Source: Campylobacteraceae bacterium (GTDB lineage: Bacteria; Campylobacterota; Campylobacteria; Campylobacterales; Sulfurovaceae). Taken from it: 64,000 bases of DNA. Positions 6,778-34,548 of this stretch are shown here, piece by piece. The notes under the pieces were generated by a model. That model had not been told where the DNA came from and did no database searches. It saw nothing but the letters and a program-made list of their open reading frames with translations. How positions within the stretch are numbered: position 1 is the first letter of the stretch; each line of letters begins with the position of its first letter. The stretch covers positions 14,804 to 78,803 of the forward strand of contig JALVXD010000216.1 in the NCBI GenBank assembly GCA_027038295.1, written 5' to 3'. The position numbers and the translations under genes are program-made.

Positions 6778-7797
6778 TTAAAAGTCATCAAAGTCTAAAC
6801 TACCTTTCGAGTAGTTTGCTACGTTACCTTCAAAAAAGTTTGTTTTTTGGTCATTAAACTTTCCAAAATCATCAACCCATTTAATAGGATGTTCAACATT
6901 ATATAGTTTATTCATACCTACAGCATGTAGTCTTTCATCTGCTAAGTACTGGATGTACTGCTCTATAATATCGTTTGTCAAACCTAAAATTTGACCTTGA
7001 GTAATGTATTTACCCCAATCACTCTCAAGCTTTACTGCCTCTCTAAACATGTTGTAAATCTCATCGTTAAACTCTTTTGTAAAGATATCTGGACGTTCAC
7101 GTTTTACAGCACGAATCATATTTTGAAAAAGAATCAAGTGTGTTACTTCATCACGTTGAATAAAACGAATCATCTGTGCTGAACCTAGCATTTTTCCTGA
7201 ACGTGCAAGGGTATAGAGGTAAGTAAAACCTGAATAGAAGTAGATGCCCTCTAATATTTGGTTAGCAAACATTGCTTTTACTATGTTTTCATCGGTTGCA
7301 TTTACACTTAGCTCTTCATAAATTTTTGCAATGGCATCATTTTTTGTTTTAAGCATCATATCTTGTCGCCAAAGTTGGTAGATTTCATCTGAGTTTGTAG
7401 ATATACTATCCACCATCACAGCATAACTCTGTGAATGAAGTGCCTCTTCAAATGCTTGTCTAACCAACACTAAGTTAATTTCAGGAGAGGTAATAAAGGG
7501 ATTAACATTATCTATAAGGTTATTGGTTTGTAATGAATCCATGAAAATAAGCTGTGATAAAACTTTGTCATAAGCTGTTTTCTCTGAATCAGTTAAACGT
7601 TTATAGTCTCCTACATCTTGGGTCATATCTACCTCTTTAGGAAACCATGTATTGTTTAACATCACTTCCCATAAATTATACGCCCAATTGTATTTAATAT
7701 CATTAAGTTCAAAAATACCTGTAGGGTCTCCACCAAATATCTTTCTATCACTTGTTTTCTCTTTTGATTCGGGGTTGTATATTTTCTTTCTATTCAT
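6778..7797 (-). CDS. nrdB: class Ia ribonucleotide reductase beta subunit
   Basis: Diiron ligands [15 protein letters not shown] (radical Tyr), [17 protein letters not shown]-terminal [10 protein letters not shown]. Confidence 0.95.
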
Positions 7798-7979
7798 GTG
7801 CTATTCTGCCTTACTTCAATTAAATATTGCTTGATTTTGCTGATTATACAGTAATAACTTTAACTCTTTTTCATATTTTTTAAAATAGATTTAAATTTAA
7901 AATATAGATTAAGTTTTAAAATGTTAAAATATAATAATTTAAAACATTATTAAATATTTTACGAAGACAAGGAGTAAAA

Positions 7980-8894
7980 ATGTATTATAATTCCAATCAG
8001 AATAGTAATGAATACTACAGTTCATACAAACAAGAACTCTCTTCCCTAGAGACCAAAAGTAACAATAGAGGTTCTTCATTTTTAACTTTAAAAAAAATAG
8101 GTATGGGTATTTTACTCTTAGCTATCGTTTTGGGAATTTTTTATAGTATAAAAAACTTTTCAAAAGAGACTTTATCTTCCTCTACAACTGATGTAGAAAA
8201 CAGAATGAATGATAATGGAAATGAGCTTTTAGCAAATAATTCAACTGTAGATACTGTACCTAAAATTATAATAACCAAAGAGAGTCTTCCAAAAAGTATT
8301 CAATTACAAGAGTCTGAATCAAAAATAATTTCTAATCTCAAAGGAAATGCCACTGATGGTTTAAATGAAGACTCACCATTAAAAAGCAAAGAGCATAATG
8401 AGATAAAAAAACAAGTTATCTCTTTACCTGAAACAGTAAATATGAATTCAAATGACATTGAAAAGATTGTGAACCTCATTCTTGCTAAGAAAAAAGAGAA
8501 AAACAAATCATCTTTAGAGAAACAGCTCCTTGAGGCAGAGACAGAAGAGCATCCAGCTCAAACGTTAAAAGAGAGTAATCACTATAATAAAGTTGTACTC
8601 TCTTCTAAAAATGAAAACGCTAACATTCAACTTACTAACCTTAACGATAAATTAAGTAAGTCAAATAAAAAAGAAAAACTCTCTAAGTATGAAAAGTCAC
8701 TTAAACCTGAAGTAGCTACACGTAAAAAAGAGATGAGAATTATTATCGTCAAAAAAGGTGACACTCTCTCTCAATTGGCTTTAAAAGCTTATGGTGATAA
8801 ATTTGCTTACGATAAAATTTTTAAAGCCAATCCTGAAATTATCAAAAATCCAAATCAAATTTTTGTAGGTCAGAAGATACGTATACCATTATAA
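7980..8894 (+). CDS. membrane-anchored LysM peptidoglycan-binding protein
   Basis: One TM helix (IGMGILLLAIVLGIFY), a low-complexity linker and a C-terminal LysM (IIVKKGDTLSQLA...IFKAN...NPNQIFVGQKIRIP). Confidence 0.88.
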   Translation: MYYNSNQNSNEYYSSYKQELSSLETKSNNRGSSFLTLKKIGMGILLLAIVLGIFYSIKNFSKETLSSSTTDVENRMNDNGNELLANNSTVDTVPKIIITKESLPKSIQLQESESKIISNLKGNATDGLNEDSPLKSKEHNEIKKQVISLPETVNMNSNDIEKIVNLILAKKKEKNKSSLEKQLLEAETEEHPAQTLKESNHYNKVVLSSKNENANIQLTNLNDKLSKSNKKEKLSKYEKSLKPEVATRKKEMRIIIVKKGDTLSQLALKAYGDKFAYDKIFKANPEIIKNPNQIFVGQKIRIPL

Positions 8895-19534: not shown

Positions 19535-20005
19535 ATGAAATATTTTCTAAAATACCTCCTCTCTTCACTCCTTAGCTTCTCTTTTGTAGCTTGTTCTACA
19601 ACCAATCCTATACCCAATGAGGCAACCGATAGCACTGCACCTTATGTGGATAAAGCTTACCTACAAACACTTGATTTTAAAGGGAAAGAACTCATAGCTG
19701 TTAAGATTAAAGGTCAATACTACTATGTTCTTAAATCTGGTAAAAAAATCTCTACCCTCACTTATGATGAAAAAGCCGATGAGTTTTCTGATGGATTGGC
19801 AAGAACAAAAGTAAATGGAAAAATTGGTTTTTTTAACAAAAACTTAGAAATTGTCCTAAAACCCATTTATGATTTTGCCTTCCCTTTTCATGATGGAGAG
19901 GCTGAAATATGTACTGGATGTCAAGAGAAAAAAACTGATGGAACATCCATGTTAGATGGTGGAACATGGAAAAAAATTAATAGAGATGGCTTGGTCATAG
20001 AGTAA
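19535..20005 (+). CDS. WG-repeat lipoprotein
   Basis: Lipobox FVAC; FSDGLARTKVNGKIGFFN and YDFAFPFHDGEAEI are WG-repeat-like. Confidence 0.8.
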   Translation: MKYFLKYLLSSLLSFSFVACSTTNPIPNEATDSTAPYVDKAYLQTLDFKGKELIAVKIKGQYYYVLKSGKKISTLTYDEKADEFSDGLARTKVNGKIGFFNKNLEIVLKPIYDFAFPFHDGEAEICTGCQEKKTDGTSMLDGGTWKKINRDGLVIE

Positions 20006-20006
20006 A

Positions 20007-21557
20007 ATGATGAAAAAAATAATACTCCTTTTAACACTTACGGCTACACTGTTACTCTCTCAAGAAAATGATGAAAACTACGAAGCTCAAAAGTTCTTCT
20101 CTGCTTCTGATGTCAATACTTTTTTTACTTCTGAAACGGGAGAACTATTAAAAAAAATCATTGTTAATGGAGATGAGTACTTCATGCAAGAAGATGGTGA
20201 CCTTTTTGATGAAGATGTTGCAACCGTTGATGATGTTATTTTTACAGCTAAAGGAGAGAGATTCTCTTTTGGAAAATCTAAACGCTTACTTGCTACCAAA
20301 ATCTATAGCACACATCAAAAAGCTTTCTATTCAAACTGTGACTATAAGATAAAAGAGAAAAAGCTTATACCTATACACAAAACCTGTGGATTTCACTATC
20401 GTAAAAATAAAAACCGTTCAGAACGTATAGAGTGGGAGCATGTGGTTCCTGCTTGGCACTTTGGACATCAGCTACACTGTTGGCAAAACGGTGGTCGAAT
20501 GGCTTGTAGACAAAACAATAGCAAGTTTAAGCAGATGGAAGCAGACATGCACAATCTTGTCCCTGCCATTGGGGAGATAAACGGTGACAGAAGTAACTTT
20601 AAGTACGGCATAATAGAAGGTGAAAAACGAGCCTATGGTAAGGTTAATATGGAGATAGAATTTTCAAGTAAAAAAGCAGAACCCAGAGAGCGTGTTTTTG
20701 GAGATATTGCAAGAATCTACTTCTATATGAGAGACCGTTATGGGTTACGTATCTCTAAAAGTCAAGAAAAAATGTTTATAGCTTGGAACAACTTAGACCC
20801 TGTAAGCAGATGGGAAAAGAGAAAAAATCAAATGGTAAAAGAGCTTCAAGGTGATGAAAACCTTTATGTTAGCAACTATAAAAAAATGAAACAACTAGGA
20901 GCTGTTACTAAAGATGTTGCCTCTACTGATTATGAAGAGGTTAAAGAGGAACTTTCAGAAAAGTATGCCTCTCTATTGGAAAACCTTTCTGCTCCTGTTG
21001 GAGGAGTGATACTCATGCTTATGACCTTTTTTGTAATCTATAAGCGTAAAAAAGAGCAAAGTTTAGAAAAAGAGACTACGGTCACAAAAGAGAATGATAA
21101 AAAAGAAGAAAAAGAACCTATTGATACCAAAAAGTTTATGCTTCTCTCCAAATTAGCTGATGTTGCTATAAGCATTAATGATAATGATGAGATTATTATA
21201 GAAAAAGCAGATAAAAACAACCCTAATCAAGAATGGATATTTACCAAAGCCAATAAGAATAAAGAGTATTTTTTTATAGAAAATCCAAAAACAGGCAAAG
21301 TAATAGAGATACAAGATAGCAATAGTAACGATGGTGCTAAAATTATTTTAAATAAAAAAAGAAGCCGTAAAAATGACCATCAAGAGTGGAAACTAGAAAC
21401 CTCTGAAGATAAAGGTTATGTATTTATCGTTAGTAAATGGTCGCTAAATGTTTTAGATATTAAGTATAAAAAAACCAAAGATGGGACAAAACTACAAAGT
21501 TTTCACAAAAAAGTTAGAGGTACTGAAAATCAGGAGTGGAGAGTTGAGAGAGGTTAG
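20007..21557 (+). CDS. endonuclease I (EndA/Dns family) with internal TM helix and C-terminal ricin-B-like domain
   Basis: Signal peptide; FYSNC, RIEWEHVVPA, EADMHNLVPAIGEINGDRSN and GDIARIYFYM (endonuclease I); hydrophobic segment aa ~330-345 followed by KRKK; three QxW motifs (QEWIF, QEWKL, QEWRV). Confidence 0.88.
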   Translation: MMKKIILLLTLTATLLLSQENDENYEAQKFFSASDVNTFFTSETGELLKKIIVNGDEYFMQEDGDLFDEDVATVDDVIFTAKGERFSFGKSKRLLATKIYSTHQKAFYSNCDYKIKEKKLIPIHKTCGFHYRKNKNRSERIEWEHVVPAWHFGHQLHCWQNGGRMACRQNNSKFKQMEADMHNLVPAIGEINGDRSNFKYGIIEGEKRAYGKVNMEIEFSSKKAEPRERVFGDIARIYFYMRDRYGLRISKSQEKMFIAWNNLDPVSRWEKRKNQMVKELQGDENLYVSNYKKMKQLGAVTKDVASTDYEEVKEELSEKYASLLENLSAPVGGVILMLMTFFVIYKRKKEQSLEKETTVTKENDKKEEKEPIDTKKFMLLSKLADVAISINDNDEIIIEKADKNNPNQEWIFTKANKNKEYFFIENPKTGKVIEIQDSNSNDGAKIILNKKRSRKNDHQEWKLETSEDKGYVFIVSKWSLNVLDIKYKKTKDGTKLQSFHKKVRGTENQEWRVERG

Positions 21558-22030
21558 AAGACCTTCTTCTTTCGGCTCTTAACGAACCAAGTGAAAAGAA
21601 GAAGACCAGTTAAAATTAATAGTGCATTTCCCAAGTAGTCATGTGCTAAAGAGAAATTATTACGTGCTTGAAGAACCAGTTGGGTGACAAACCAAATTCT
21701 AAAAACATTCATAAATGTTATAAAGATGTATCCCATTACTGCCCATTTGAGCTTATGCTTAAAGGTAGAGGGAAAAGCAATAATGGATGCTAAGAAAAAC
21801 AGATAGGGAATTATCCCATTACATGCTTTCTCAATAACCAAAGAGTAGTGTTCATTAATTAAGATACGATGACTGTCCATCATACCATCAGCTAAGCTTA
21901 GTGATGTAAGATATACCGTTAAATCTGTTTGTACGCTATTTATAGTGGAGCTTAAAGGAGATAAATCCCAATAAAAAACCCCAAATAACATGGCAATACC
22001 TAACCAATAACTCAATAAAAATTTTTTCAT
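21554..22030 (-). CDS. exosortase/archaeosortase-family protein (exosortase H-like)
   Basis: Multi-pass membrane protein with the Cys-Arg-His triad context IEKACNG, MNVFRI, AHDYLG. Confidence 0.85.
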   Translation of the reverse strand: MKKFLLSYWLGIAMLFGVFYWDLSPLSSTINSVQTDLTVYLTSLSLADGMMDSHRILINEHYSLVIEKACNGIIPYLFFLASIIAFPSTFKHKLKWAVMGYIFITFMNVFRIWFVTQLVLQARNNFSLAHDYLGNALLILTGLLLFTWFVKSRKKKVF

Positions 22031-22196
22031 TCTTTATGTTGCCTTTGATGACCATGCTTTTAGTAAAATTCTAACGATTATTTAATTATTTTATAGGTAA
22101 TTTACTAAAAGTTGTCATGTAAATATATTATTTATTGTTTCTAAATGTATTATACTGTAGCTTAACTTAATATTAATTTAAACTTAAAGTATAATA

Positions 22197-22775
22197 TTAG
22201 TTTTTTGACGGTCTATTTGAATTATTTGATTTTTTCTTTGTACCATTGCTATCAACAGGAGGCAAAGGAATATTTTGAACCATAAAAGTCTGAGCCTCTT
22301 GACCCTTTATCTGTATAATGACTAAAATTTTATCTTTCTTTTTACTTTTATAAACTTTAAACATCTCTATATCTTTAGCAACCTCATCTACTTCTACACG
22401 CTGTTCACCTCTAAGGGGAATTGTATAGTTTCCTCCTTCTATACGAAGCAAAGTGTTGTTCTCTTTTGCTACCAACCAAGTCACTTTTGCAGCTCCTTGA
22501 CCATAGAGAGAGTGTGTTGTATTTTCAATAATAAGTCGATGTAGTTTATCTTCTGTTAGCACAGTAATATTATGGTCAGCATGTGTTAAGTCCATATAGA
22601 GTGTTCTGCTTCCTTTTAAAGTATTGCTAGACTTCTCTAAATGTTTAAAAAGGTGCAAGTTAGAATTACGTAAAATATCAGCACTTTTATAGAGTGCCAT
22701 AAGCACTAAAGACAACAAAGTAATTGATATAAGAACTTCTATAAGAGTAAAGCCCTTTTGTTGCTGTTTTATCAT
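22197..22775 (-). CDS. T2SS minor pseudopilin, GspJ-like
   Basis: Class III signal KGFTLIEVLISITLL; position in the gsp cluster. Confidence 0.75.
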   Translation of the reverse strand: MIKQQQKGFTLIEVLISITLLSLVLMALYKSADILRNSNLHLFKHLEKSSNTLKGSRTLYMDLTHADHNITVLTEDKLHRLIIENTTHSLYGQGAAKVTWLVAKENNTLLRIEGGNYTIPLRGEQRVEVDEVAKDIEMFKVYKSKKKDKILVIIQIKGQEAQTFMVQNIPLPPVDSNGTKKKSNNSNRPSKN

Positions 22776-22778
22776 TTT

Positions 22779-24293
22779 CTAATCTTCCATTATCCCGATA
22801 CGCACTGTCTCTTCATATGAGGTTGTTCCATTAATAAGCATATCTTTAAGCTTATCAGCAATGGTTTTCATACCTGCTTTTTTCATCTCTATTCGTATCT
22901 GGTGGTCATTTAAACCATCTTTTATCATCTGCTTCACCTCATCGCCCATTACAAAGAGTTCCCCTACTGCCTGTCGTCCACTGTAACCAGTAAAATCACA
23001 AGAGATACACCCTTTTGCTTGGAAGTACTCGATATTAGGCAATTTCAATTCTGACATAACAACAGGGGCTAAAGTTGTTGGCTCTTTACATTTTGGACAT
23101 AATTTTCGAGTCAAACGCTGTGCCAAAACACCTAAAAGTGTTGAAGTAAGTAAGAAGTCCTCAATTCCCATGTCCATCAGTCTTGAAATGGCTGAGGTAG
23201 CATCATTGGTATGCAGGGTAGAAAGCATAAGGTGACCTGTCAATGCTGAACGTAAAGCAATGTCTGCTGTTTCGCTGTCCCTTATCTCTCCAATCATAAT
23301 AATATCTGGGTCTTGTCTTAGTATCGAACGTAAACCTGCTGCAAAAGTTAAACCTACTTTTTCATTCACTTGTATTTGATTGACATTGTCAGCATTGTAC
23401 TCCACTGGGTCTTCAACCGTAATGATATTCTTATCAGGTGTGGCAATGTGTTGTAAACAGGCATGTAGAGTGGTTGATTTACCTGACCCCGTAGGACCAG
23501 TAACCAACATCATTCCATGTGGGTGGGTTAGAAGCTTGTTTAAATCTTCTGTCAACTCATCAGTAAAGCCAAGGTCTTGCAAGGTAGGAATGGTATCACT
23601 TTGCATAAGCAGTCTCATAACCACACGTTCACCATAATAGGTTGGCAAAACAGAAACCCTAATGTCTAATGTTCTTCCAGAAATAGTAACTTGTGTACGA
23701 CCATCTTGAGGTATTCTCTTTTCAGAAATATCAAGGTTGGAGATAACTTTAATACGAGAAATCACCAAACCTGTAACATTTTTGTCAATATCAAGATGCT
23801 TTTTCAAAGCACCATCTACCCGTAAACGTACCTCACCTTTTTTCTCTAAAGTTTCTATGTGAATATCAGATGCACCTTTTTTAATGGCTTGGAAGAAGAG
23901 TGAGTTCACCAGCTTTACAACAGGTGCTGACTCTTCATTTGAGAGTAAATCTTGTGAATTTCGTATAAAATCAAGTAAGTCAGACTCTACTTCAATAACA
24001 TCATCACCTGTAGAGGTGTCAACATTTTCAAAGTCTGAACCTGTTTGTATCTCTTGAAATTTATTATAAAGACGCTCAAAACTTCCTTCATCTAGCTCTA
24101 CTAAAGGGTAATCTACGTCTATTTGAGAGAGGTGGTTAATAGACATTGCCAAACTCTCTCTTTTGACAACAGCTGTAGGAGTGTTGTCTATATTTGCAAA
24201 GAGTAACTGGTGTTTCATCGCCAGTTTATTGTTTATCTCTTCACTCCAAAAAGGTTCTAAGTCTCTATTTTCTAGTAAAGGTAAATTCATCAT
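22779..24293 (-). CDS. gspE: T2SS ATPase GspE
   Basis: ASDIHIE, GPTGSGKST, LRQDPDIIMIGEIRD, TGHLMLSTLHTND, tetra-Cys motif. Confidence 0.93.
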   Translation of the reverse strand: MMNLPLLENRDLEPFWSEEINNKLAMKHQLLFANIDNTPTAVVKRESLAMSINHLSQIDVDYPLVELDEGSFERLYNKFQEIQTGSDFENVDTSTGDDVIEVESDLLDFIRNSQDLLSNEESAPVVKLVNSLFFQAIKKGASDIHIETLEKKGEVRLRVDGALKKHLDIDKNVTGLVISRIKVISNLDISEKRIPQDGRTQVTISGRTLDIRVSVLPTYYGERVVMRLLMQSDTIPTLQDLGFTDELTEDLNKLLTHPHGMMLVTGPTGSGKSTTLHACLQHIATPDKNIITVEDPVEYNADNVNQIQVNEKVGLTFAAGLRSILRQDPDIIMIGEIRDSETADIALRSALTGHLMLSTLHTNDATSAISRLMDMGIEDFLLTSTLLGVLAQRLTRKLCPKCKEPTTLAPVVMSELKLPNIEYFQAKGCISCDFTGYSGRQAVGELFVMGDEVKQMIKDGLNDHQIRIEMKKAGMKTIADKLKDMLINGTTSYEETVRIGIMED

Positions 24294-24302
24294 CTTCTTT
24301 AC

Positions 24303-26492
24303 CTAGTAACTGTTTGCACTATTATCAATCGTGTCCATAATAGATTCGCTCTGTACATAATCACTCTCCTGCGTATAGTCTGAAACCACAGGAAGTGTTG
24401 GCTCATACACTTGATAGTCGTCATTTCCATTTGAAACGTCTACAGGTTTAGGAAGTGCTTTAACAGGGTTTTCAAAATCATTATCATAACTTGACTGACC
24501 ATTAAATGTACTATGTCTTCCGTTTGAAGGGTTTCCTGCTCTTGCTTCTAATCTATCAAATACTATCTTATTGTACTGTTGTTGAACAGCCTCTAGTTCA
24601 TCTAAGTGAGCGCGTAAAGAGGTTAAATCTGCACTCTTTTTAAGAATATATGGTGTGATATAAATAACCACATTGACCTTACTTGAGGAGTTACCGTTAG
24701 AGGTAAAAAGTCTTCCAATAATAGGGATGTCACCTAAAATAGGTATCTTCGTTTGACTCTTTCCATCAGCACTTTTTATAAGTCCACCCAATATAATGGT
24801 CTCTGCATGATTAACAATAGCATTGGTTTTAACAGAACGCTTGGTTGTGGTTGGTCGGTCAGCAGTAGCACCCGAACCAGGAACAATATCTTCAATAGTG
24901 GTTTCAATTTCAAGTGACACTTTGTTGTTAGAAGAGAGTCTAGGTTTTACTTTAAGGGTAATACCAATATCTTCACGAGAGTAATTGTTTAAAACGTTTG
25001 AAGAGCCTTGCGTACTCTGCTGAGACTGTGTCAAAATAGACTGTGTTCGCCCCACATAAATACTTGCCTCTTTGTTGTTGGTTGACAATACAGAAGGCTT
25101 AGACAAAATCTGTGCAGCTCCATTTTGTTTTAAGAGGTCAAGTTGAGCACCTAAAGAGAACACTTTACTTATCCCCGAGTCAAACTGAAATGCTCTATCT
25201 GTTGTTGTATATCCACTATTACCATTTGTACCTTCATGATAAGTTTCATTACTAAGAAACCCAAGAAGAGATTGAGAAATAGCCAAAGCAGGAGCTCCAG
25301 CATTTCCAGCCAAAGAAAAAAGACCATTTGAAGTAATGGCTCCCCCATTAAACCCATATTTCAAACCAATATTTTCTGCCAAGTTGGTATTGACTTCCAC
25401 AATTTTTGCCTGAATAAACACTTGTGATTTCTCTACATCAAGTAGTTTTACAGTCTCTAAAATATTCTGATACTGGTCTTCATTTGCCAATACAATCAAA
25501 GAGTTTCTCTCTACATCAGAAGCAATAACTGCTTTAGGTGCTGGCTTTCCATTACCAATAGATGAAGGTGCTCCACCAGCTCCTATAGGTGCTCCACCCA
25601 TAGCCCTTGCAGGTGTGCCTCCAGATGAGATAGATCCTCTACCTGTTAACTGTGGTACAATTTTGCTTAAAATCTTCTCCATCTCTTCAACATTGGAGTT
25701 CATCAGAGGAATAACATGCATTCTTTGACTATCACCTCCACCAGGTAAATCAAGCTGTTGTATGTACTTTTCTAATCTTTTAACATTAGAACGCTTTCCA
25801 ACTAAAATAATGGAGTTCCCATTTGAGTTTTGCATAACAGCTACTTTTTCACTCGGGATATCTTGAGAGAAAAGTGCTTTTGACATACTTTGAATATTGG
25901 GATAGACATCTTTAACACGTGCATTTTGTAAGTAGACCACTTTACTTAGCTTTGCCTGTTTATTTTCTATCTTATCTATAAGTTTTTTAGCCGTTTTCAA
26001 GTTACGAGGGTAATCAGTAATGGCTAAAAGGTTGTTTTTCTTAAAAGAGACCACTTTAGCACTTTTGCTAAGAAGTGGTTTAATTTTAGTACGAATAACA
26101 GCTGAGTTCACATTTGAAAGTTGAAAAACCACTGTTTTCATGGTACCATCACCAGAGGTAACACTGGAAGAGACATCCAGTCCTTGACCTGGAGCTGTGG
26201 TTGACTTAACTACTTGATAATAATTTCCTTTTTTTACCAAAGTCATCTTCTTAGTTCCCAAAATAGCATTGGCTAAAGGAATAAGTTCACTCTTGTCAAT
26301 AGGGGTATTGGAGACAAAGTTTATTTTACCTTTAATATCTCCATCTACTAAAATATTTTTTCCTGTAATTTTACCAACCATTTTAATAAAGTCACTAATG
26401 GTCAAATCTCTAAAGTTTACATCTACCTTTTCTGCCTGAGCTTGTACACTCAAAGCCAAAATCAAACCTAATGCCAGTTTACTTAATTTCAT
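24303..26492 (-). CDS. gspD: T2SS secretin GspD
   Basis: N0-N3 domains; QVFIQAKIVEV, REDIGITLKVKP, IILGGLI, KIPILGDIPIIGRLF. Confidence 0.93.
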   Translation of the reverse strand: MKLSKLALGLILALSVQAQAEKVDVNFRDLTISDFIKMVGKITGKNILVDGDIKGKINFVSNTPIDKSELIPLANAILGTKKMTLVKKGNYYQVVKSTTAPGQGLDVSSSVTSGDGTMKTVVFQLSNVNSAVIRTKIKPLLSKSAKVVSFKKNNLLAITDYPRNLKTAKKLIDKIENKQAKLSKVVYLQNARVKDVYPNIQSMSKALFSQDIPSEKVAVMQNSNGNSIILVGKRSNVKRLEKYIQQLDLPGGGDSQRMHVIPLMNSNVEEMEKILSKIVPQLTGRGSISSGGTPARAMGGAPIGAGGAPSSIGNGKPAPKAVIASDVERNSLIVLANEDQYQNILETVKLLDVEKSQVFIQAKIVEVNTNLAENIGLKYGFNGGAITSNGLFSLAGNAGAPALAISQSLLGFLSNETYHEGTNGNSGYTTTDRAFQFDSGISKVFSLGAQLDLLKQNGAAQILSKPSVLSTNNKEASIYVGRTQSILTQSQQSTQGSSNVLNNYSREDIGITLKVKPRLSSNNKVSLEIETTIEDIVPGSGATADRPTTTKRSVKTNAIVNHAETIILGGLIKSADGKSQTKIPILGDIPIIGRLFTSNGNSSSKVNVVIYITPYILKKSADLTSLRAHLDELEAVQQQYNKIVFDRLEARAGNPSNGRHSTFNGQSSYDNDFENPVKALPKPVDVSNGNDDYQVYEPTLPVVSDYTQESDYVQSESIMDTIDNSANSY

Positions 26493-27309
26493 ATTCTAAC
26501 TCCTCTGTTGCACCATTTCTTTGAACGGTTAATGTTAAATTTTCTATATTATTTATATCTTTAAAAAAGCTCATGGCCGCACCGTAAGAGTTTAACTCTT
26601 CGCCATTTATTCCCATGAGAATATCACCTCGTTGAAGTCCTAGCTTTTCAAAATCACTGCCTCTTTTGACAAAGTTAATTTTAAATCCATTTATTTTACC
26701 AGAGATTTTATTTTCACTAATTCCTATATCTTTCCAAATCTTGTCTACATTTTTAGTATAAGAGGTTAGTAGGTCTCTCTGGATATGCTTTACACCACCC
26801 TCTTCAACAATAGCATTATTTGGTTTTTTATCATTTGACGATACAGCCTTAGGTCTAGAACGTGACTTACCTGAATTTTTAATATTAATCAAAGAGAGTT
26901 TAAACTCTTTGTCTCCTTTGGTAAACATTGCAAAGTTTGGACCAGCAGAGGTAAGGGTAAACCCATCTATCTTTTCACCTTTTCCAAGTACGGTTGTTTT
27001 AGAACCTTTTACTACAGTAACGACCAATGCATCAGAAGCATTATAGAGTGCTAAAAGCTTAATACCCCTCATGGAACTTACAACTGGTGCTTTTTTTCTA
27101 GTAGTATTTACAGGAGCAATAGAAGCAGCTGCATTGGTTAATTTTACTCTATAGTATAAAGCTTTTGCTTTTCCCTCTTGGGCATACTCTTCACCTGAAC
27201 TTGGCAGCAAAAAGAGCGAAACTGCCAACCAAATAAGTTTTACTAAAACTATAATGGATAAAAAGAATATGGCTGTCGAGAAATATTTAGTATTAATAAT
27301 TTGTTTCAT
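26479..27309 (-). CDS. gspC: T2SS GspC-like protein with PDZ domain
   Basis: N-terminal TM, HR domain, C-terminal PDZ (GFKINFVKRGS...LGLQRGDILMGINGEEL). Confidence 0.8.
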   Translation of the reverse strand: MKQIINTKYFSTAIFFLSIIVLVKLIWLAVSLFLLPSSGEEYAQEGKAKALYYRVKLTNAAASIAPVNTTRKKAPVVSSMRGIKLLALYNASDALVVTVVKGSKTTVLGKGEKIDGFTLTSAGPNFAMFTKGDKEFKLSLINIKNSGKSRSRPKAVSSNDKKPNNAIVEEGGVKHIQRDLLTSYTKNVDKIWKDIGISENKISGKINGFKINFVKRGSDFEKLGLQRGDILMGINGEELNSYGAAMSFFKDINNIENLTLTVQRNGATEELEYEIK

Positions 27310-27811
27310 AGTACCATCCTCCTGTTTTATCTTTTTTCAAAAACTTTTTAATTGTTTGTATATCTTTTACTACAGGAAAATCAATATGAACTTGCTTCGC
27401 CTTTAGGGCTACTGTACCTGATGCTGTACCAAAACTACCCAAACCATCTATGGTCACATTTAAGGGATTAAGCAAAGAGTATTTAACGTTTAACTCATCT
27501 ATAGATTTAGGAGCCATAGCCTGTAGTGACTCATCTATATTTATATTTTCTACGTTTAAACTGTTATAAAAAAAGAAAATATTGAGTTGTAAGTTGGCTG
27601 TATTTGCCATCTTAATACCCTTAACATAAACATCTGCATTTTTAATATTTAAACCAAACCATGTGTCTGTAACGGTCTCATTTGAGAGAACAATATCGTT
27701 CTCTTTTAACTTCTTTTCTAACAGATAATAGAGTTCTTGCTTTGGTGCAAGAAGCCACATAAGGACAAGAAAGAGTAAAAATCCACCTACTATTCGTTTT
27801 ACCATTTGCAT
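27293..27811 (-). CDS. T2SS accessory protein, GspN-like
   Basis: N-terminal TM plus beta-rich body; assigned mainly by position between the gspM-like gene and gspC. Confidence 0.5.
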   Translation of the reverse strand: MQMVKRIVGGFLLFLVLMWLLAPKQELYYLLEKKLKENDIVLSNETVTDTWFGLNIKNADVYVKGIKMANTANLQLNIFFFYNSLNVENINIDESLQAMAPKSIDELNVKYSLLNPLNVTIDGLGSFGTASGTVALKAKQVHIDFPVVKDIQTIKKFLKKDKTGGWYYETNY

Positions 27812-28215
27812 GTGAACTCCATAGAATATATATTTTTTGAACTCTCTATAATCTTTAAGCTTATTATCTGCACAGGCATACTCATAAGTTTATTATTTAG
27901 CTTATATAACTCATCTGCAGTAAGATTTACATAGGAAGCTACCAATTTTTTAGATTTAGGACTAAAAGATTTTACTTTAGAAGCATCAACAACTGTTTTT
28001 AAAGCTTTAACTTTCTTTGGCATACCTTTGCCATCCCATTGACTTTTATATTTATTAATAGCTGTTATCTCGGCTATCTGCTGTTGTGTTCGTGCCTTAT
28101 TCTCTTCTACATATGAACTGGCATTTAGTTTATAGAGGAAAGCACCCATAACAAAAAGTAATGCTAAGAGTAAAATAATTTCATTTTTATAACGTTGAAG
28201 TGTCATTAAATTCAT
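27799..28215 (-). CDS. T2SS GspM-like assembly platform protein
   Basis: Single TM followed by a short periplasmic domain; follows the gspL-like gene. Confidence 0.55.
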   Translation of the reverse strand: MNLMTLQRYKNEIILLLALLFVMGAFLYKLNASSYVEENKARTQQQIAEITAINKYKSQWDGKGMPKKVKALKTVVDASKVKSFSPKSKKLVASYVNLTADELYKLNNKLMSMPVQIISLKIIESSKNIYSMEFTCKW

Positions 28216-29141
28216 AGTTTAACCTCGACTTTCACATTAAGACCTGAACCTGATATTTTCATTTTTTTAGCTTTTCCATGCTCTTTAACCTGCTTACTAA
28301 TGGCTGTATTTTGCGTCACAATATCTGCAGAGACTATATTTTTATCAATTGTCAGTGACTTAAGTTGACTTTTTGCTGATAAAAGCGTAGATATATCTTT
28401 TATCGCATCTCTCTTAGCACGTTCTATGGTATCAATTGGTTTATACTTATCTAAAATACTTGCTCTTAAAGCACTACTTCCATATTTTGGATTATCATCA
28501 ATAAGCATCGTTAACTTAGCATCTTCATTGGCTATAGATGATTTTATACGCTGACCTTCTACGATAAATGTTGTACCTAAAAGTGCAAGAAGTGAACCTA
28601 AAATAATGGTCTCTTTTAATGAAACAAAAGACTCAAGCGAATCCCCCATACTAACACCATTTTTAAGCTTTGGCTTGTCAATGTCCAGTGTTGAGTACGC
28701 TACTTCATCTCCTAAAAAACGTTTAGGAACCATGGTTACGATACCATCAACACTTTGTAAAGCATGATTGCCACTTAATAACAAGGGTGTAGACAATTCA
28801 CTTTCAAGCTGTTGTGCAAAGTATATTTTTGAAACACGATGTTTCTCTATACCTACACTCTCTAAAAATTGGTCTATTTCCTCTATATTGTACGCAAAAA
28901 AACACCATAGTTTATCACATTTGTAGACATGATATTGATACACCTTAGATGCATCTAAATAGTCATCAAACATTGACTCTGCTATCTGTTTTGCTTGATA
29001 CGCAAACTTGATATCCAACTCTTCATGTAAAAAAGTATAAAACTGAGGTGTCAGTATAATCTCAACAGAGTTTTCTAATTTTACAGGTTCCATATTTTTA
29101 TGGATTAATATTCTATTACTCTGCTTTGCCGTTAAATTCAA
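28212..29141 (-). CDS. T2SS GspL-like assembly platform protein
   Basis: Cytoplasmic domain, TM (IILGSLLALLGTTFIV), periplasmic domain; between gspK and the gspM-like gene. Probable TTG start at 29141 with GGAG 8 nt upstream (the ORF track starts at 29171). Confidence 0.6.
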   Translation of the reverse strand: MNLTAKQSNRILIHKNMEPVKLENSVEIILTPQFYTFLHEELDIKFAYQAKQIAESMFDDYLDASKVYQYHVYKCDKLWCFFAYNIEEIDQFLESVGIEKHRVSKIYFAQQLESELSTPLLLSGNHALQSVDGIVTMVPKRFLGDEVAYSTLDIDKPKLKNGVSMGDSLESFVSLKETIILGSLLALLGTTFIVEGQRIKSSIANEDAKLTMLIDDNPKYGSSALRASILDKYKPIDTIERAKRDAIKDISTLLSAKSQLKSLTIDKNIVSADIVTQNTAISKQVKEHGKAKKMKISGSGLNVKVEVKL

Positions 29142-30027
29142 AATTGCCACTCCTTCCTTCAATGTAATCAAAATTCATTTTATATTGCCCATCTCTATAA
29201 GCATAGGTCTCTTCACAATGCATCGCATTAAGTGCTTTGTTGGAATAAATATTTTTATCTATAGGCTCCATTATAGAATTTTCTGTTAAAAAACTCTGTA
29301 AAGTGGTTTCTCCTATTATCCAACCCTCTTGTACTATTTCTATAGGAACCTCAAAAGCAACTGAAATAAATTCAGGACTTAAGTACGCACCATCTATTTG
29401 TGTTTTGTTATCTACCTTTGTAAATGAAAAGTAACGCTCCCAAGGAACCAAAAGTACTTTTGGGTCATCAAATCGTAAACGATAGTCTGAAATAATCCTA
29501 TCAAACTGACTTATTGAGACAACTCCTTTTTTACTTTTTATTCTAGGAGCATCATCTTCATTTTGTGAAACTTTTCCTGTAACAGCTTGCAATATAAGTC
29601 TTTCAAGCTCATTAGGCTCTTGAACATCATAATGTTCCATTACTAAGGTCAGTATTTTTTTCGCTAAAACTGCCTTTTTAGGAGTTTTAGGAAAAAGAGA
29701 ATTGTCTAACCAAGAGATGGGTACACCCACCATCAATGGCTTACAACTCAAATTTAATCCAAACCCACTTTTTGCTTCGCTCAACATCAAAGGCATTGTA
29801 TATATTAATTTTAATTTTTCACTGTTGTCCTTCCCTTGTGGGAAAAAACGTTTTAAAATATTTACTGTATTTTTTTGTAACAGATTCCCTTGTAAAATAG
29901 CCGATGTTGCTCCAGCATCTTTTTGCACTTTTTCCAAATAGGTAAACGATACAGCTATTATAGACATAATAGAAGCAATCACCATCAATGTAATAAAAAG
30001 TGCGATACCACGTTTTGTTTTATCCAT
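29116..30027 (-). CDS. T2SS minor pseudopilin GspK-like
   Basis: KRG/IALFITLMVI: atypical prepilin lacking Glu5, as in GspK; start taken at MDKTKRG (30027). Confidence 0.72.
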   Translation of the reverse strand: MDKTKRGIALFITLMVIASIMSIIAVSFTYLEKVQKDAGATSAILQGNLLQKNTVNILKRFFPQGKDNSEKLKLIYTMPLMLSEAKSGFGLNLSCKPLMVGVPISWLDNSLFPKTPKKAVLAKKILTLVMEHYDVQEPNELERLILQAVTGKVSQNEDDAPRIKSKKGVVSISQFDRIISDYRLRFDDPKVLLVPWERYFSFTKVDNKTQIDGAYLSPEFISVAFEVPIEIVQEGWIIGETTLQSFLTENSIMEPIDKNIYSNKALNAMHCEETYAYRDGQYKMNFDYIEGRSGNFEFNGKAE

Positions 30028-30090
30028 AATAAAGCTCAATTCAAGTAAAATCAGCACTATTATAACCAACTTAAACTAAGGATTTTAAAC

Positions 30091-30618
30091 ATGACTAAAG
30101 AATTTGGACTAAAAAGCCACAAAACAACAACTTTAACTAAAAATAAAAATATTTTTTTAATTAATAAAGTCAATCAAAAACAGAATAAAATATCTTTAAC
30201 AACAGCAAAAAACGCTTTCTCACTGCTTGAGCTTTTGGTTGTTATTTTAATCTTAGGAATTTTAGCAGCAGCCGTAGTTCCTAGAGTTGTAGGAGCAGGA
30301 GACAAAGCAAAAGTAGACTTGGTTTGTGTCAATATGAAAGGTGCTGCAAATGCACTCAAAATGTTTAAACTTGACAATGGAATGTACCCAGAAACAGAAG
30401 AGGGATTTGAAGCACTACAATCAAACCCAGACGCAGACAAATACTCAAATTACTCTTCAGCTGCTTACCTAGAACACCTTCCAAAAGACTCTTGGGGTTC
30501 AAAAATGGTCTATATTAAAACAGGTAATGCTTTTGATATCATCTCTTATGGTGCTGACAAACGTGAAGGTGGAACTGACGAATACGCTGATATTAAATAT
30601 TCAGGATGTAACAAATAG
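30091..30618 (+). CDS. gspG: T2SS major pseudopilin GspG
   Basis: AFSLLELLVVILILGILAAAVVP, FKLDNGMYP...EGFEAL, PKDSWG, IISYGADKREGG; AAGGA RBS before the ATG at 30091. Confidence 0.92.
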   Translation: MTKEFGLKSHKTTTLTKNKNIFLINKVNQKQNKISLTTAKNAFSLLELLVVILILGILAAAVVPRVVGAGDKAKVDLVCVNMKGAANALKMFKLDNGMYPETEEGFEALQSNPDADKYSNYSSAAYLEHLPKDSWGSKMVYIKTGNAFDIISYGADKREGGTDEYADIKYSGCNK

Positions 30619-30619
30619 A

Positions 30620-31156
30620 ATGTCTACAACAACCCGTTCAGGATTTTCTCTTTTAGAACTTATTGTTGTTGTTATGATTGTCTCACTTGTTGGGTTTTTA
30701 GTTTTCTCTTCTGCCATTAAACAGCAAAAAAAAGTAGAAGCTCTAAACCCTTCTACACTTCCTAGTACATTCAAAAAAACCTTTAAAGGTCAAGGTGATG
30801 TTGAACTTTTCTGTGTTAAAAAATGTACTGAATGCTCTGTGATGCAAGAAGGAAAGATAAGCGCTTACGCTGGTGGCATAAAATTTGGTAAAAATGTAGA
30901 GATTCATACACTAGATAATAATAACCACTTTATTCAACAAGAGGAACTTGGACGATTTAAAGATGAAAAAATAAGTTTTAGATTCCATCTCTACCCAAAT
31001 GGGAGTACCACACAGATGGTTGTAGTAAATGACCAAGGCATCTACTTTCTTCCCAGCTATTTTGGCAAAGCTAAAAAAGTAAAAGATATGGATGAAGCCA
31101 AAGAGTTATGGATAAAGAGTAAGTATGATTTAAAAGATAGTAGCTCATTTTACTAA
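30620..31156 (+). CDS. T2SS minor pseudopilin, GspH-like
   Basis: RSGFSLLELIVVVMIV; start moved to the ATG at 30620, 1 nt after the gspG stop; FYPNGS-like motif (LYPNGST). Confidence 0.75.
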   Translation: MSTTTRSGFSLLELIVVVMIVSLVGFLVFSSAIKQQKKVEALNPSTLPSTFKKTFKGQGDVELFCVKKCTECSVMQEGKISAYAGGIKFGKNVEIHTLDNNNHFIQQEELGRFKDEKISFRFHLYPNGSTTQMVVVNDQGIYFLPSYFGKAKKVKDMDEAKELWIKSKYDLKDSSSFY

Positions 31157-31174
31157 ATAGAGGAATATAAATAT

Positions 31175-31585
31175 ATGAACCATATAAAAAAAGCTTTTAC
31201 ACTTATAGAAGTTATTATGTCCGTTATCATCGTTTCAATAGTGGTAATGGGTGCTCTACAACTACAAGAACAGAACAGCGACATGGCAACCTACCTTATG
31301 AAAAGAGGAAATGCAGAACTTGACAACTCACTCTTTTTAACCCAGAGGGTACAACGTTACGATAAAAGTAAAAAAAATGCCTATGATATACTTGTAGATG
31401 AGTTCCAAATAAAAGATGATAAAAGCCGTCAACTCTTAAAAAAGATAGAGAAAAAAATCAACATTACAGAAGCAACACCCATCCCTGTAGGAGCTACAGA
31501 AGACTCTCCTCCACTTTTTACTTTTTACTCCAATGAAATTTTACTTAATGGAAAGTATCCTTCTAGGTATTTTACTTTTAAATAA
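31175..31585 (+). CDS. T2SS minor pseudopilin, GspI-like
   Basis: KKAFTLIEVIMSVIIV class III signal. Confidence 0.72.
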   Translation: MNHIKKAFTLIEVIMSVIIVSIVVMGALQLQEQNSDMATYLMKRGNAELDNSLFLTQRVQRYDKSKKNAYDILVDEFQIKDDKSRQLLKKIEKKINITEATPIPVGATEDSPPLFTFYSNEILLNGKYPSRYFTFK

Positions 31586-31660: not shown

Positions 31661-32512
31661 ATGAAAAAAGGAATATCCATACATATAGGGTTAAACCATC
31701 TTGATGAAGAACACTATGGTACAGGAGTCTCTCCACTAGAGACTTGTGAACAAGATGCTAGAGACATACAAGAACTTGCTTTAAATCAAAACTTTAAATC
31801 CACCTTTTTACTTTTGAGTGAAAATGCCACAAGAGCTGCTGTAAAATCTGCCATAAAATCTGCTAGTAAAGAGCTATATTCTGGTGATATACTCTTGTTA
31901 AGTTACTCAGGTCATGGTGGTTTTGTACCTGACACAAACGGTGATGAGACAGACGATACACTCGATGAGACATGGTGTCTTTATGATGGTCAATTTATAG
32001 ATGATGAACTCTTTAAGTTGTGGAGTAGATTTAAAGTTGGTGTACGAATTGTTGTACTTTCTGACTCATGTCATAGTGGTACAGTGGCTAAAGCCAATAA
32101 TTTAAGAGATGAAAAAAAAGAGAACAGTATCTTTAAAAAGAAGCTTCTCCCCTATAGTGTTGCTAAGTCGGTCTATTATAATAATAAAAGTTTCTACGAA
32201 AAAATAGCAAAAAAATTTTTAAATAAAAAGCCTAAGGAGCTAAGAGCGAGTGTTAAACTCTTGGCAGCTTGTCAAGACCCAGAAGTCTCCTATACTATTC
32301 CATTTGCACGAAACAGTATATTTACTGAAAAGCTACTAAAAGTATGGAATTCTGGACAGTTTGTAGGTACCTATGATGAGTTCTTTGAGACCATAAAAGA
32401 GGAAGTAAGCTCTTTAAACTTTTTACCTACCAAACAGACCCCAAATCTTTATGATGTAGGTAGAGAAAATGAGGACTTCGACAAACAGAAGCCATTTCAG
32501 ATTTATGAGTAG
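31661..32512 (+). CDS. caspase-family (peptidase C14, metacaspase) protein
   Basis: ISIHIGLN start, catalytic dyad SYSGHG and LSDSCHSGT, DETWCLYD, LLAACQD; no signal peptide; AAGGAG RBS. Confidence 0.93.
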   Translation: MKKGISIHIGLNHLDEEHYGTGVSPLETCEQDARDIQELALNQNFKSTFLLLSENATRAAVKSAIKSASKELYSGDILLLSYSGHGGFVPDTNGDETDDTLDETWCLYDGQFIDDELFKLWSRFKVGVRIVVLSDSCHSGTVAKANNLRDEKKENSIFKKKLLPYSVAKSVYYNNKSFYEKIAKKFLNKKPKELRASVKLLAACQDPEVSYTIPFARNSIFTEKLLKVWNSGQFVGTYDEFFETIKEEVSSLNFLPTKQTPNLYDVGRENEDFDKQKPFQIYE

Positions 32513-32517
32513 AGTTT

Positions 32518-34548
32518 ATGGGAAAAACATCTTATAAAAAAAGACTCCTAGATGTACGACAAGATAGACTCGATTTACGAGATAGGGTCTATCAACCTGT
32601 GCTAAAATCTTTAAGTGCTACGTACCCTGATAGCAAATATATCAACTATATTTTAAAATGTTATAGAAAAGAGAATCTTATACTCGACCAAGGAAACAAT
32701 GGGGCTTGTAGTGGTTATGCATTGGCTTCAGTTATTAACTATCTTTTATGGCAACAACAAAATAACTCTGAGATAGTAAGCCCTAAAATGCTCTTTAACC
32801 TTGCACGTATTTACGATGAGTGGAATGGTGAAGATTATGAAGGTTCTAGCTGTCGTGGAGCCATGAAGGGTTGGCATAAACATGGTGTCTGTGCTAAGAG
32901 TTATTGGGAGTTTAACCAAGAGGAGCCTAAAGATGGCTGGGACATAGACTCGGTAGAGAGACCTCTTGGTGCTTACTACCGTGTCAACAAAGACTCCATC
33001 TCCGACATACAAGCAGCACTTTGTGAAGTGGGTGCTTTGTATGTTTCAGCATCCATACATGATGGCTGGTGGAGCCTCAATAATTACAAAGATAGAGATA
33101 TAGCAAGTGTAGAAAAAGACCTTCCTGTAATACCTTATGACTCTTTTCCACAAGGAATCCATGCCTTTGTCATTATAGGCTATACAAGACAAGGTTTTAT
33201 TATTCAAAACTCATGGGGTAGAGGTTGGGGGAATTGTGGTTTTGCAATTTTAAGCTATAAAGAGTGGTTAAAAAATGGTCTGGATGTTTGGGTTGCTGTT
33301 ATGGGTGTTCCTATAGACATCGAAAACTCCTCTCAAACCATTACTACAAAATCTCTTGCTTCGGCATCAAAAGTTTATGAAGAGTTACAAACAGAAAATA
33401 AAAGTAACTCTAAAAAAGAAAAGCCAAGAAATGAAGAAAATGCTTACAATCACACCCTCGTACTCAATGCAAATGGACGTGCAAAACATACGATTATTAA
33501 AACATCAACACTAGAGCGTTCTATTGAAGTTATCTGTTATGATAAGCTCAAAACTTGGTTAAAAATGAGTAATAAAAATAGAAAAATAATAATCTATGCT
33601 CTTGGTGGATTAGAGGATGAAAAAGCATATATATCTAAAATAAAAAAACTTATACCTTATTTTCTAAACAGTGGTATCTACCCTATCTTCTTAACATGGG
33701 AGCAAAGTTATCAAAGAGCCATAGAGGAGTCTATTGAATCATTTTTCAAAGAGACACTAGATGGAAGAAATAAAAAACTTGAAAAGAAGATATTAGAAGA
33801 TGAAGTTGCACTAAACAGAGCCATAGAGAACTATTGTAGAAATATCTCCACAAGAGGTATTTGGGTAGAGATGAAAGAGCAATCGAGAAACACTATTCAA
33901 AAAAGAGTCAAAGGCTTTACTGGCGAAAGAAGTGGTGTACTCTATCTTCTGACACACTCTATTAAAGAATTATCTAAGGAGTTTAATAAGTTAGAAGTAC
34001 ATGCCATGGCACACTCTGCAGGTTCTGAGCTCTTAGCAACATCATGGCTAAAAGAGCTCAATAAACAAAAAATAAAACTACATTCTTTGCATCTTTTAGC
34101 TCCTACTATCTCCATTCAAGATAGCAATGCGTTTATAGTTAAATATAGTAAAAAAGGTGTTATTGACAAAAAAAGTATACACATTTACATACTGGATAAA
34201 GAGATGGAAAAGAGAGACCATGTTAGTAGATACAGTCAATCCATACTCTATCTTATTAGTCGCTCTTTAGAAAAAATACACAAAACACCTCTTCTTGGAC
34301 TACTCGACTCTTGGGACGATAAAAACAGTAAAACCAAAGATGGTATCTTTAATACATCACAACTTAATGACCTAAAAAAATGGCATAAATTTGCTTATGC
34401 GTTAGATAATACTCTATTTCCTTATATTTTAAAGAAAAAGCATAGCCAATTAGAATCGTATCAAGATAATGACTTTGTAAAACTCACCCATAAAAATCTT
34501 GATAGTAGTCTCTTTATTTTAGAGAGCGTTTTAAAGATAATAGACTAA
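32518..34548 (+). CDS. papain-like C1 cysteine peptidase fused to a C-terminal alpha/beta-hydrolase domain
   Basis: DQGNNGACSGY (Gln/Cys), GIHAFVIIGY (His), IQNSWGRGWG (Asn); the C-terminal half has the nucleophile elbow AHSAGS, LHLLAP and a distal TH; no signal peptide; starts 5 nt after the caspase stop. Confidence 0.88.
   Translation: MGKTSYKKRLLDVRQDRLDLRDRVYQPVLKSLSATYPDSKYINYILKCYRKENLILDQGNNGACSGYALASVINYLLWQQQNNSEIVSPKMLFNLARIYDEWNGEDYEGSSCRGAMKGWHKHGVCAKSYWEFNQEEPKDGWDIDSVERPLGAYYRVNKDSISDIQAALCEVGALYVSASIHDGWWSLNNYKDRDIASVEKDLPVIPYDSFPQGIHAFVIIGYTRQGFIIQNSWGRGWGNCGFAILSYKEWLKNGLDVWVAVMGVPIDIENSSQTITTKSLASASKVYEELQTENKSNSKKEKPRNEENAYNHTLVLNANGRAKHTIIKTSTLERSIEVICYDKLKTWLKMSNKNRKIIIYALGGLEDEKAYISKIKKLIPYFLNSGIYPIFLTWEQSYQRAIEESIESFFKETLDGRNKKLEKKILEDEVALNRAIENYCRNISTRGIWVEMKEQSRNTIQKRVKGFTGERSGVLYLLTHSIKELSKEFNKLEVHAMAHSAGSELLATSWLKELNKQKIKLHSLHLLAPTISIQDSNAFIVKYSKKGVIDKKSIHIYILDKEMEKRDHVSRYSQSILYLISRSLEKIHKTPLLGLLDSWDDKNSKTKDGIFNTSQLNDLKKWHKFAYALDNTLFPYILKKKHSQLESYQDNDFVKLTHKNLDSSLFILESVLKIID

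Follow-up and report, generated by a model that had tools for sequence, protein, structure and literature searches.

Exosortases are widespread and, to our knowledge, have until now been linked as a family to exopolysaccharide (EPS) loci, with little understood about how exosortase products cross the outer membrane. Two other sorting enzymes are described as acting ahead of the T2SS (type II secretion system). In Vibrio, Shewanella and Aeromonas, the intramembrane enzyme rhombosortase (RssP/RrtA) has been proposed to cut the GlyGly-CTERM tail of Sec-exported proteins, which consists of a motif, a transmembrane (TM) helix and a basic end, before these proteins leave through the T2SS (PMC11980579). 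Its gene is associated with no particular T2SS subclass, sorting enzymes with a single target tend to be encoded next to that target, and extracellular nucleases are among the GlyGly-CTERM cargo (PMC3237569). In Myxococcota, myxosortase (MrtX) likewise processes a tail, MYXO-CTERM, before T2SS-dependent surface display. Here we describe a 64-kb window (the whole stretch of DNA that was analysed, from contig JALVXD010000216.1) in which a gene for a small exosortase-family protein, designated xrt, lies at one end of a T2SS gene cluster and converges on the gene for a membrane-tethered endonuclease I. The genomes nearest to this locus are Sulfurovum-like metagenome-assembled genomes (MAGs), and the DNA sequencing runs that contain it are hydrothermal-vent metagenomes. 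The presence of a conserved exosortase in the T2SS cluster of deep-sea-vent Sulfurovum points to a route, not described before, by which proteins are prepared for export.

Linkage of an exosortase-family gene to type II secretion clusters

The xrt gene (21554..22030, minus strand) encodes a 158-amino-acid protein whose score on the exosortase/archaeosortase signature TIGR04178 is 52.1 bits, above the cutoff of 23. Three motifs that a preliminary description of this DNA had taken as evidence of an exosortase (ACNG, NVFRI and AHDY) are all present, in the contexts EKACNG (Cys70, nucleotides 21823-21821), NVFRIW (Arg111, 21700-21698) and LAHDY (His130, 21643-21641). Cys70, Arg111 and His130 are invariant in two alignments comprising 10 and 47 homologues, and the C-terminal end of the protein is basic (KSRKKKVF). 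A total of 327 homologues were identified, every one from Sulfurovum-like sources. The window protein has no Pfam match at E ≤ 0.01; many homologues with 70-89% identity to it have a precomputed match to PF09721 (Exosortase_EpsH).

The AlphaFold2 model of the protein (predicted local distance difference test score, pLDDT, 85; predicted template modelling score 0.79) contains five helices (residues 2-20, 25-45, 73-85, 90-121 and 126-151) and a short hairpin just ahead of Cys70, and is consistent with a polytopic membrane protein. No sequence relative was found in the PDB, and a Foldseek search with the model returned only noise (best E value 0.95, template modelling score 0.2). Judged by its sequence, the product of xrt is a minimal cysteine transpeptidase or protease of the exosortase family, with its catalytic residues intact.

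The preliminary description had called this enzyme exosortase-H-like and had suggested scoring it against exosortase models. Although the protein passes TIGR04178, it reaches only 56.3 bits on the XrtH model (TIGR04177; cutoff 86), and its score on the XrtX model (NF046081), slightly higher at 59.5 bits, is also far from the cutoff of 170; membership in both subfamilies was therefore rejected. Distant, duplicated and unlinked homologues likewise miss every named subfamily cutoff, and the clade-B (see below), duplicate and unlinked homologues pass TIGR04178 at 46.7-62.4 bits. By these family scores, xrt is a short exosortase of an unnamed subfamily, not XrtA, XrtH, XrtX or any other named one.

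Related loci were collected by a profile search with xrt, using one genome per species, and by a search with the GspE N-domain, which yielded 213 relatives, all from Campylobacterota, of which the best 80 were used. Cluster genes were mapped by tblastn and hmmsearch. Of the 45 related genomes in which the context of xrt could be read, about 41 have the gene touching a T2SS cluster of the same type. In position A (about 22 genomes, xrt identity 56-97%), the gene directly follows the J-like pseudopilin gene on the same strand, as in the window. In position B (about 19 genomes, clade B, xrt identity 42-47%), which includes Nitratifractor and other Sulfurovaceae MAGs, it resides at the other end of the cluster on the opposite strand, between the I-like pseudopilin gene and gspF. 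For example, at locus L155 (1195-2969) xrt overlaps the pseudopilin stop convergently and is divergent from gspF. The clade-B homologues keep the catalytic residues as QACNG, VVRL and SHDF.

Tandem xrt duplicates occur at four loci (L019/L121, L020/L122, L025 and L026), and both paralogues at L025 (8948-9442 and 10001-10525) keep the Cys, Arg and His residues and pass TIGR04178. Four genomes carry xrt unlinked to the T2SS, next to rplM-rpsI or dapF, with the T2SS on a separate contig. In addition, about 16 clusters of the same type, each covered on both flanks and including that of the complete Sulfurovum sp. CS9 genome, have no xrt beside them.

Because the adjacency of the exosortase gene and the T2SS cluster recurs in dozens of species, it is not due to chance. 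That there are two independent insertion points, that the link is retained over deep divergence and that xrt has been duplicated locally all argue for a functional tie, and we consider a functional link between xrt and the T2SS probable. The exosortase/T2SS pathway envisaged in the preliminary description thus gains support, in that neither rearrangement nor duplication nor divergence down to 42% identity has broken the link. However, the clusters that lack xrt, and the possibility that xrt has its own promoter, speak against an obligatory role in type II secretion. The existence of such clusters indicates that xrt is dispensable for the machine, and therefore that it is an accessory rather than a core part. 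We found no description in the literature of an exosortase associated with T2SS clusters, pseudopilins or Sulfurovum.

Gene order in the window

Assignment of the cluster to the T2SS follows from the presence of a secretin GspD with an N0 domain, an ATPase GspE and a major pseudopilin GspG. The gene nearest to xrt, 166 bp upstream on the same strand, encodes a 192-amino-acid minor pseudopilin (22197..22775, minus strand) with the prepilin N-terminal motif KG↓FTLIEV (TIGR02532 30.7 bits, PF07963 37.1 bits). This protein matches none of the GspJ models, and the name 'GspJ-like' reflects only its position and a process of elimination. The preliminary description, which had xrt just downstream of gspJ on the same strand, was therefore correct about the arrangement, but the gspJ identity is positional. 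The AT-rich spacer between the two genes (22031..22196, minus strand) contains a promoter-like site, TTAATA-16-TATAAT at 22176-22149 (a consensus match only), and no terminator-like hairpin.

Beyond the minor pseudopilin gene, the minus strand carries genes for the secretion ATPase GspE (22779..24293; PF00437 T2SSE 453 bits), the secretin GspD (24303..26492; Secretin 147.7 bits, three Secretin_N domains, GspD N0 domain 60.5 bits) and a GspC-like protein with an N-terminal TM helix and a C-terminal PDZ domain (26479..27309; PDZ 23.8 bits, cutoff 23.2), whose cluster position is conserved in relatives. These are followed by four T2SS assembly genes (27293..30069, minus strand; 172, 138, 319 and 317 amino acids) that are collinear across all related clusters. 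Their products have no Pfam or NCBIfam match, and we infer from gene order and N-terminal TM helices that they are N-, M-, L- and K-like.

Divergent from these minus-strand genes are those for the major pseudopilin GspG (30091-30618, plus strand; TIGR01710 125.6 bits, cutoff 88.85), an H-like pseudopilin (30527-31156, plus strand) and an I-like pseudopilin (31175-31585, plus strand), the latter two each with a prepilin motif. The GspG open reading frame has an unusually long stretch of 40 residues ahead of the site of prepilin cleavage (…AKNA↓FSLLELLVV), where position -1 is an Ala, and translation may in truth start at a non-ATG codon inside this frame. Neither gspF nor a gene for the prepilin peptidase GspO was found within the window. 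In relatives, gspF belongs to the cluster and follows the I-like pseudopilin gene (L180 1583-2806; PF00482 135.6 bits). No GspO gene was found in any locus examined, and this enzyme is presumably encoded elsewhere in the genome.

At its other end, xrt meets the nuclease gene. As the preliminary description had noted, the two stops overlap, and they do so within the sequence GGTTAG (nuclease TAG at 21555-21557; xrt stop the complement of TTA at 21554-21556). A gene for a WG-repeat lipoprotein (19535..20005, plus strand; PF14903 51.9 bits) ends 1 nucleotide ahead of the nuclease start, a layout that is kept in loci L001 and L002, and these two genes probably share one transcript.

Several further genes were observed at these loci. 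Directly after the T2SS pseudopilin genes in the window (31661-34548, plus strand) are a caspase-like Peptidase_C14 gene (283 amino acids) and a gene for a 676-amino-acid protein with an N-terminal papain-like Peptidase_C1 domain, both without a signal peptide. The caspase-like gene occupies the identical place in L010 (97% identity), and its PADLOC 'caspase' match is weak. The location of dnaA at 61987-63324 (plus strand) places the window near the chromosomal replication origin. In other genomes, secreted proteins are encoded close to T2SS-unlinked xrt genes. At L005, another secreted nuclease, unrelated to the first, is encoded 1 kb from xrt; it is a lipoprotein (7339-8316, minus strand) that has a Pro/Thr-rich linker and a DRGH motif of the DNA/RNA non-specific endonuclease type. 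At L024, a large secreted protein with a signal peptide (from 11063 on the plus strand to the contig end; >872 amino acids, C-terminus off the contig) begins 0.6 kb downstream of xrt.

The endonuclease I precursor as a candidate substrate

We tentatively propose that the minimal exosortase is a T2SS accessory that processes Sec-exported, membrane-tethered cargo, and that the adjacent nuclease is a candidate client. A competing explanation is that the exosortase serves the T2SS but that the nuclease is not its substrate. In this case, the nuclease would be held by a permanent type I anchor as a DNase at the periplasmic face, where it would, for example, degrade or process incoming DNA, with its ricin-type domain in the cytoplasm. 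The true clients would then be encoded elsewhere, and the proximity of xrt would reflect local synteny.

The nuclease gene (20007..21557, plus strand) encodes a 516-amino-acid, membrane-tethered endonuclease I precursor (PF04231 141.9 bits, cutoff 25). Its parts are, in order, a signal peptide (residues 1 to ~19), the EndoI domain (residues 108-290, nucleotides 20328-20876), a conserved amphipathic helix, a tripartite module, a linker and a ricin-type domain. The catalytic motifs EWEH and NGDRSN are invariant, as are E144-H145, N183/N192 and the four cysteines, all of which lie inside the EndoI domain. Its score on the equivalog model NF011716 (239 bits) is below the cutoff of 372, and therefore the protein is not the orthologue of the E. 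coli/Vibrio enzyme.

The tripartite module, SAPVGG-VILMLMTFFVIY-KRKK, has exactly the coordinates given in the preliminary description (20988..21053, plus strand; residues 328-349) and is a candidate sorting signal or a plain membrane anchor. The segment behind KRKK is 167 residues long and comprises a Lys/Glu-rich linker and a ricin-type beta-trefoil (residues 384-516, nucleotides 21156..21554, plus strand; PF14200 57.6 bits, PF00652 42 bits), a domain absent from the preliminary description. The domain is Cys-free and has QEW at 408, 459 and 509. The structural model of the nuclease contains a long helix (329-362) and an all-beta trefoil (377-516, pLDDT ~90). Acidic residues ahead of the TM helix and KRKK behind it predict an N-out, C-in helix under the positive-inside rule, and the ricin-type domain, since it follows this helix and KRKK, is predicted to be cytoplasmic. 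The motif would then sit at the periplasmic end of the helix, facing the predicted periplasmic Cys/His site of the exosortase.

The long architecture recurs in over 100 clusters of homologues, with Cocleimonas (Gammaproteobacteria) among them. Other orthologues, of 310-360 amino acids, stop right behind the basic cluster (e.g. ...IPSPFREILLVLITLVIVYFKKRKS and ...LSKPVATILLLIMTLFTLYIRRRKK), and these are genuine stops rather than contig ends. Because the short orthologues end after the basic cluster, the module in these proteins is a true C-terminal tripartite signal, and this exact terminal layout of sortase-type signals speaks against a permanent anchor. The preliminary description had considered the signal to be internal and to contain Gly-Gly. 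The module is indeed internal in the window protein, for which there is precedent in that sorting tags can function inside a protein (PMC11980579), but it is C-terminal in the short orthologues, and the Gly-Gly is not conserved among orthologues.

Proteins with a signal peptide and a C-terminal or internal motif-TM-basic module were also sought, both in the window and in 1.64 Mb of loci from Campylobacterota. The only matches were the nucleases, LspA and a cytochrome subunit, and the nuclease was the sole protein with the full layout. No distinct family of true C-terminal targets was found within the 1.64 Mb of sampled loci, and neither the open reading frames in the window nor those in 1.7 Mb of related loci included IPTLxxWG tails, the kind expected of XrtH targets, or PEP-TM or GlyGly tails. 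If the nuclease is only anchored, xrt is left without a candidate substrate and the cytoplasmic ricin-type domain has no evident role.

A search for the TM-ricin module on other enzymes gave only nuclease fragments and one Kelch fusion. This fusion (P0243, a JGI contig of 2276 bp) joins a Kelch-repeat N-terminus to an identical APVGG-TM-RRK-ricin module and is probably a chimeric assembly, not a second client family. The same TM-tailed EndoI clade, in some cases with the ricin-type domain, is present in sulfur-oxidising Gammaproteobacteria, namely in Thiolinea, Thiothrix and Thiotrichaceae (L048, L049 and L051-L053) and in Cocleimonas and its relatives (L007-L009 and L043-L044). This distribution suggests nuclease transfer between vent and sulfidic-habitat lineages.

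The xrt and nuclease genes are adjacent in L001 and L002 and are 2.3 kb apart in L010, and at least eight metagenome contigs carry both. Among the matches listed, xrt is present in 8 of 10 nuclease-bearing Campylobacterota genomes. A pair of genes for bitopic membrane proteins (p415/p158b; ~415 and 140-158 amino acids), which have no family match and are widespread in vent Campylobacterota (L194-L273), was found beside xrt in L004 (7991-9671) and beside a short nuclease gene in L047 (8083-9751). This pair was rejected as a bridge between xrt and the nuclease. Neither gene lies near it in 79 other metagenome loci, and the adjacency is therefore coincidental.

A number of observations weigh against the nuclease as a substrate. 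The motif ahead of the TM helix is loose among orthologues ([LIVF]-[SP]-x-[PSW], with variants such as SPFRE, SKPVET, SDSVGT, PAWLVN and similar), and Gly-Gly occurs in the window protein and some near relatives, with AG, SG, ET, RE or VN elsewhere. When seven tails were scanned with CTERM models, the best scores were all sub-threshold (LPXTG 15.3 vs 15.9, Heimdall 17.2 vs 24, Loki 16 vs 19.9, PEP 13.8 vs 16) and the matches spanned only the TM and basic parts. The PEP-CTERM score (TIGR02595, 13.8 bits) came from two orthologue tails only, and the window tail gave no match to this model. No PEP motif was present in the tails scanned, and the GlyGly-CTERM model had no match at E ≤ 10 in the seven tails. 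As measured with these models, the nuclease tail fits no described CTERM class, which counts in favour of an anchor.

The distribution of the two genes adds to these points. Adjacency is confined to relatives whose xrt identity is at least 79%, and at 71% the neighbour is already another gene. No nuclease was seen in the clade-B xrt genomes (~19) among the matches listed, which missed JALUMR01, which would rule the nuclease out as a general substrate. Neither xrt nor a T2SS was found within 10 kb of the TM-tailed nuclease genes of Thiothrix, Thiolinea and Cocleimonas, or near the short-form nuclease loci. The Thiotrichales nucleases have variable basic tails of 10-30 residues that resemble an anchor more than a sorting signal, and WGAM01 has a T2SS and a short nuclease, yet no xrt beside the cluster. 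The co-occurrence of xrt and the nuclease may reflect shared ancestry. No RNA runs containing the locus were found in the run search.

These findings, together with the fact that the long form, with a folded domain behind the TM helix, is the commonest architecture, make the permanent anchor a serious possibility, although one that we do not consider probable. The role of the nuclease as an exosortase substrate is in our judgement doubtful. The preliminary description had put the nuclease forward as the substrate and had suggested examining synteny of xrt, gsp and endA. Of these, the gsp linkage is conserved and the endA linkage is not. Adjacency in close relatives still speaks for the nuclease, but general co-occurrence is missing from the matches listed for clade B.

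Another explanation is that the target of the exosortase is not cargo but the envelope or the secretion machine itself, either by maturing or anchoring a T2SS component or by attaching a protein to lipid or polysaccharide for secretin function. Minor pseudopilin genes are the immediate neighbours of xrt in both arrangements, no cargo gene is consistently adjacent, and the clusters carry no prepilin peptidase gene. However, none of the T2SS-cluster proteins has the signal peptide and C-terminal TM helix required of an exosortase substrate. Each is either an N-in bitopic protein or a pseudopilin whose prepilin site is of the classic G/A↓F-x-x-x-E kind. Such sites are cut by aspartic prepilin peptidases at the cytoplasmic face. 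In contrast, known exosortase substrates are N-out, C-in (PMC3237569). Furthermore, the ~16 clusters without xrt are otherwise identical and also lack a peptidase gene, indicating that the machine does not need xrt. Because of this wrong topology, the classic prepilin sites and the clusters without xrt, action on a T2SS component is quite improbable. The specific idea that the exosortase is a stand-in prepilin peptidase was rejected on the basis of the classic prepilin sites and the equal lack of a peptidase gene in clusters without xrt.

Finally, co-inheritance of xrt with the T2SS cluster while it works in an unrelated pathway, such as XrtA-like, exopolysaccharide-linked sorting, would accommodate the four genomes with unlinked xrt and a possible separate promoter, but is very improbable given that xrt sits at two independent points of the same cluster and on different strands there, that linkage is kept down to 42% identity, that local xrt duplications occur and that EPS genes are lacking nearby.

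Proposed pathway and comparison with described systems

Building on the observed family membership, conserved catalytic residues, T2SS linkage and tail architecture, we modelled the cleavage, its substrate and the fate of the product on the rhombosortase/GlyGly-CTERM and myxosortase/MYXO-CTERM systems, both of which feed the T2SS. In the proposed T2SS accessory role for xrt, a cargo protein would be exported by Sec and held at the inner membrane by its motif-TM-basic module. The exosortase active site (Cys70 and His130), located at the periplasmic face, would cut at the motif and might transfer the new C-terminus of the cargo to another moiety. The folded cargo would then pass to the secretin pathway for export or display. 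At this locus, a cut at SAPVGG would free or re-anchor the DNase for export, and a TM stub with the cytoplasmic ricin-type domain would be left behind. In its fullest form, the model would add a third partnership between a sorting enzyme and the T2SS to those of rhombosortase and myxosortase. In it, a dedicated exosortase encoded within the T2SS cluster of vent Campylobacterota licenses tethered cargo for secretion or for display at the surface and here cuts an internal signal, so that one precursor yields a DNase for export and a ricin stub in the inner membrane. All of these elements together are unlikely to hold.

A T2SS-embedded exosortase subfamily would tie exosortase processing directly to type II secretion and, if the proposal is true, would match the pathways of rhombosortase and myxosortase by means of a third, unrelated enzyme. 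If the nuclease is a client, the locus would show an abundant vent bacterium deploying a DNase outside the cell or on its surface, a matter relevant to biofilm, to the turnover of extracellular DNA and to transformation, and it would be an example from nature of a sorting signal that is internal.

Among exosortases, XrtA is an enzyme with ~8 TM helices, a link to EPS loci and numerous targets in each genome. The PEP-CTERM enzymes XrtA and XrtB (EpsH) belong to the same superfamily as the xrt protein and have the same catalytic residues, and the topology expected of their substrates (signal peptide, motif, TM helix and basic end) is shared. Unlike XrtA, the xrt protein is only 158 amino acids long, is T2SS-linked and has at most one visible target. 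XrtH (TIGR04177) and XrtX (NF046081) are alike in length (~160 amino acids) and are the best-scoring named subfamilies. We know of no T2SS context reported for XrtH or XrtX, and none was found in the literature.

Compared with rhombosortase, which is a rhomboid serine protease, the xrt protein is a Cys/Arg/His exosortase of an unrelated family. Its gene lies inside the T2SS cluster, such that the association of sorting enzyme and secretion system is written in gene order here, unlike that of rhombosortase (PMC3237569). In addition, the Gly-Gly of GlyGly-CTERM is not conserved in this nuclease clade, and the module is internal in the window protein. Myxosortase differs in being a CPBP/Rce1-like enzyme with dozens of clients, whose tag carries an invariant lipidated Cys. 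One MYXO-CTERM client, MXAN_5598, has an internal tag that is thought to derive from gene fusion (PMC11980579), and this parallels the internal module and ricin-type domain of the nuclease. With respect to the Endonuclease I family (Vibrio Dns/Vvn and E. coli EndA), the catalytic domain and Sec secretion are common to the window nuclease. Whereas the classical members are soluble proteins of ~230 amino acids, the clade represented in the window has a helix and a TM anchor in addition, often together with a ricin-type domain.

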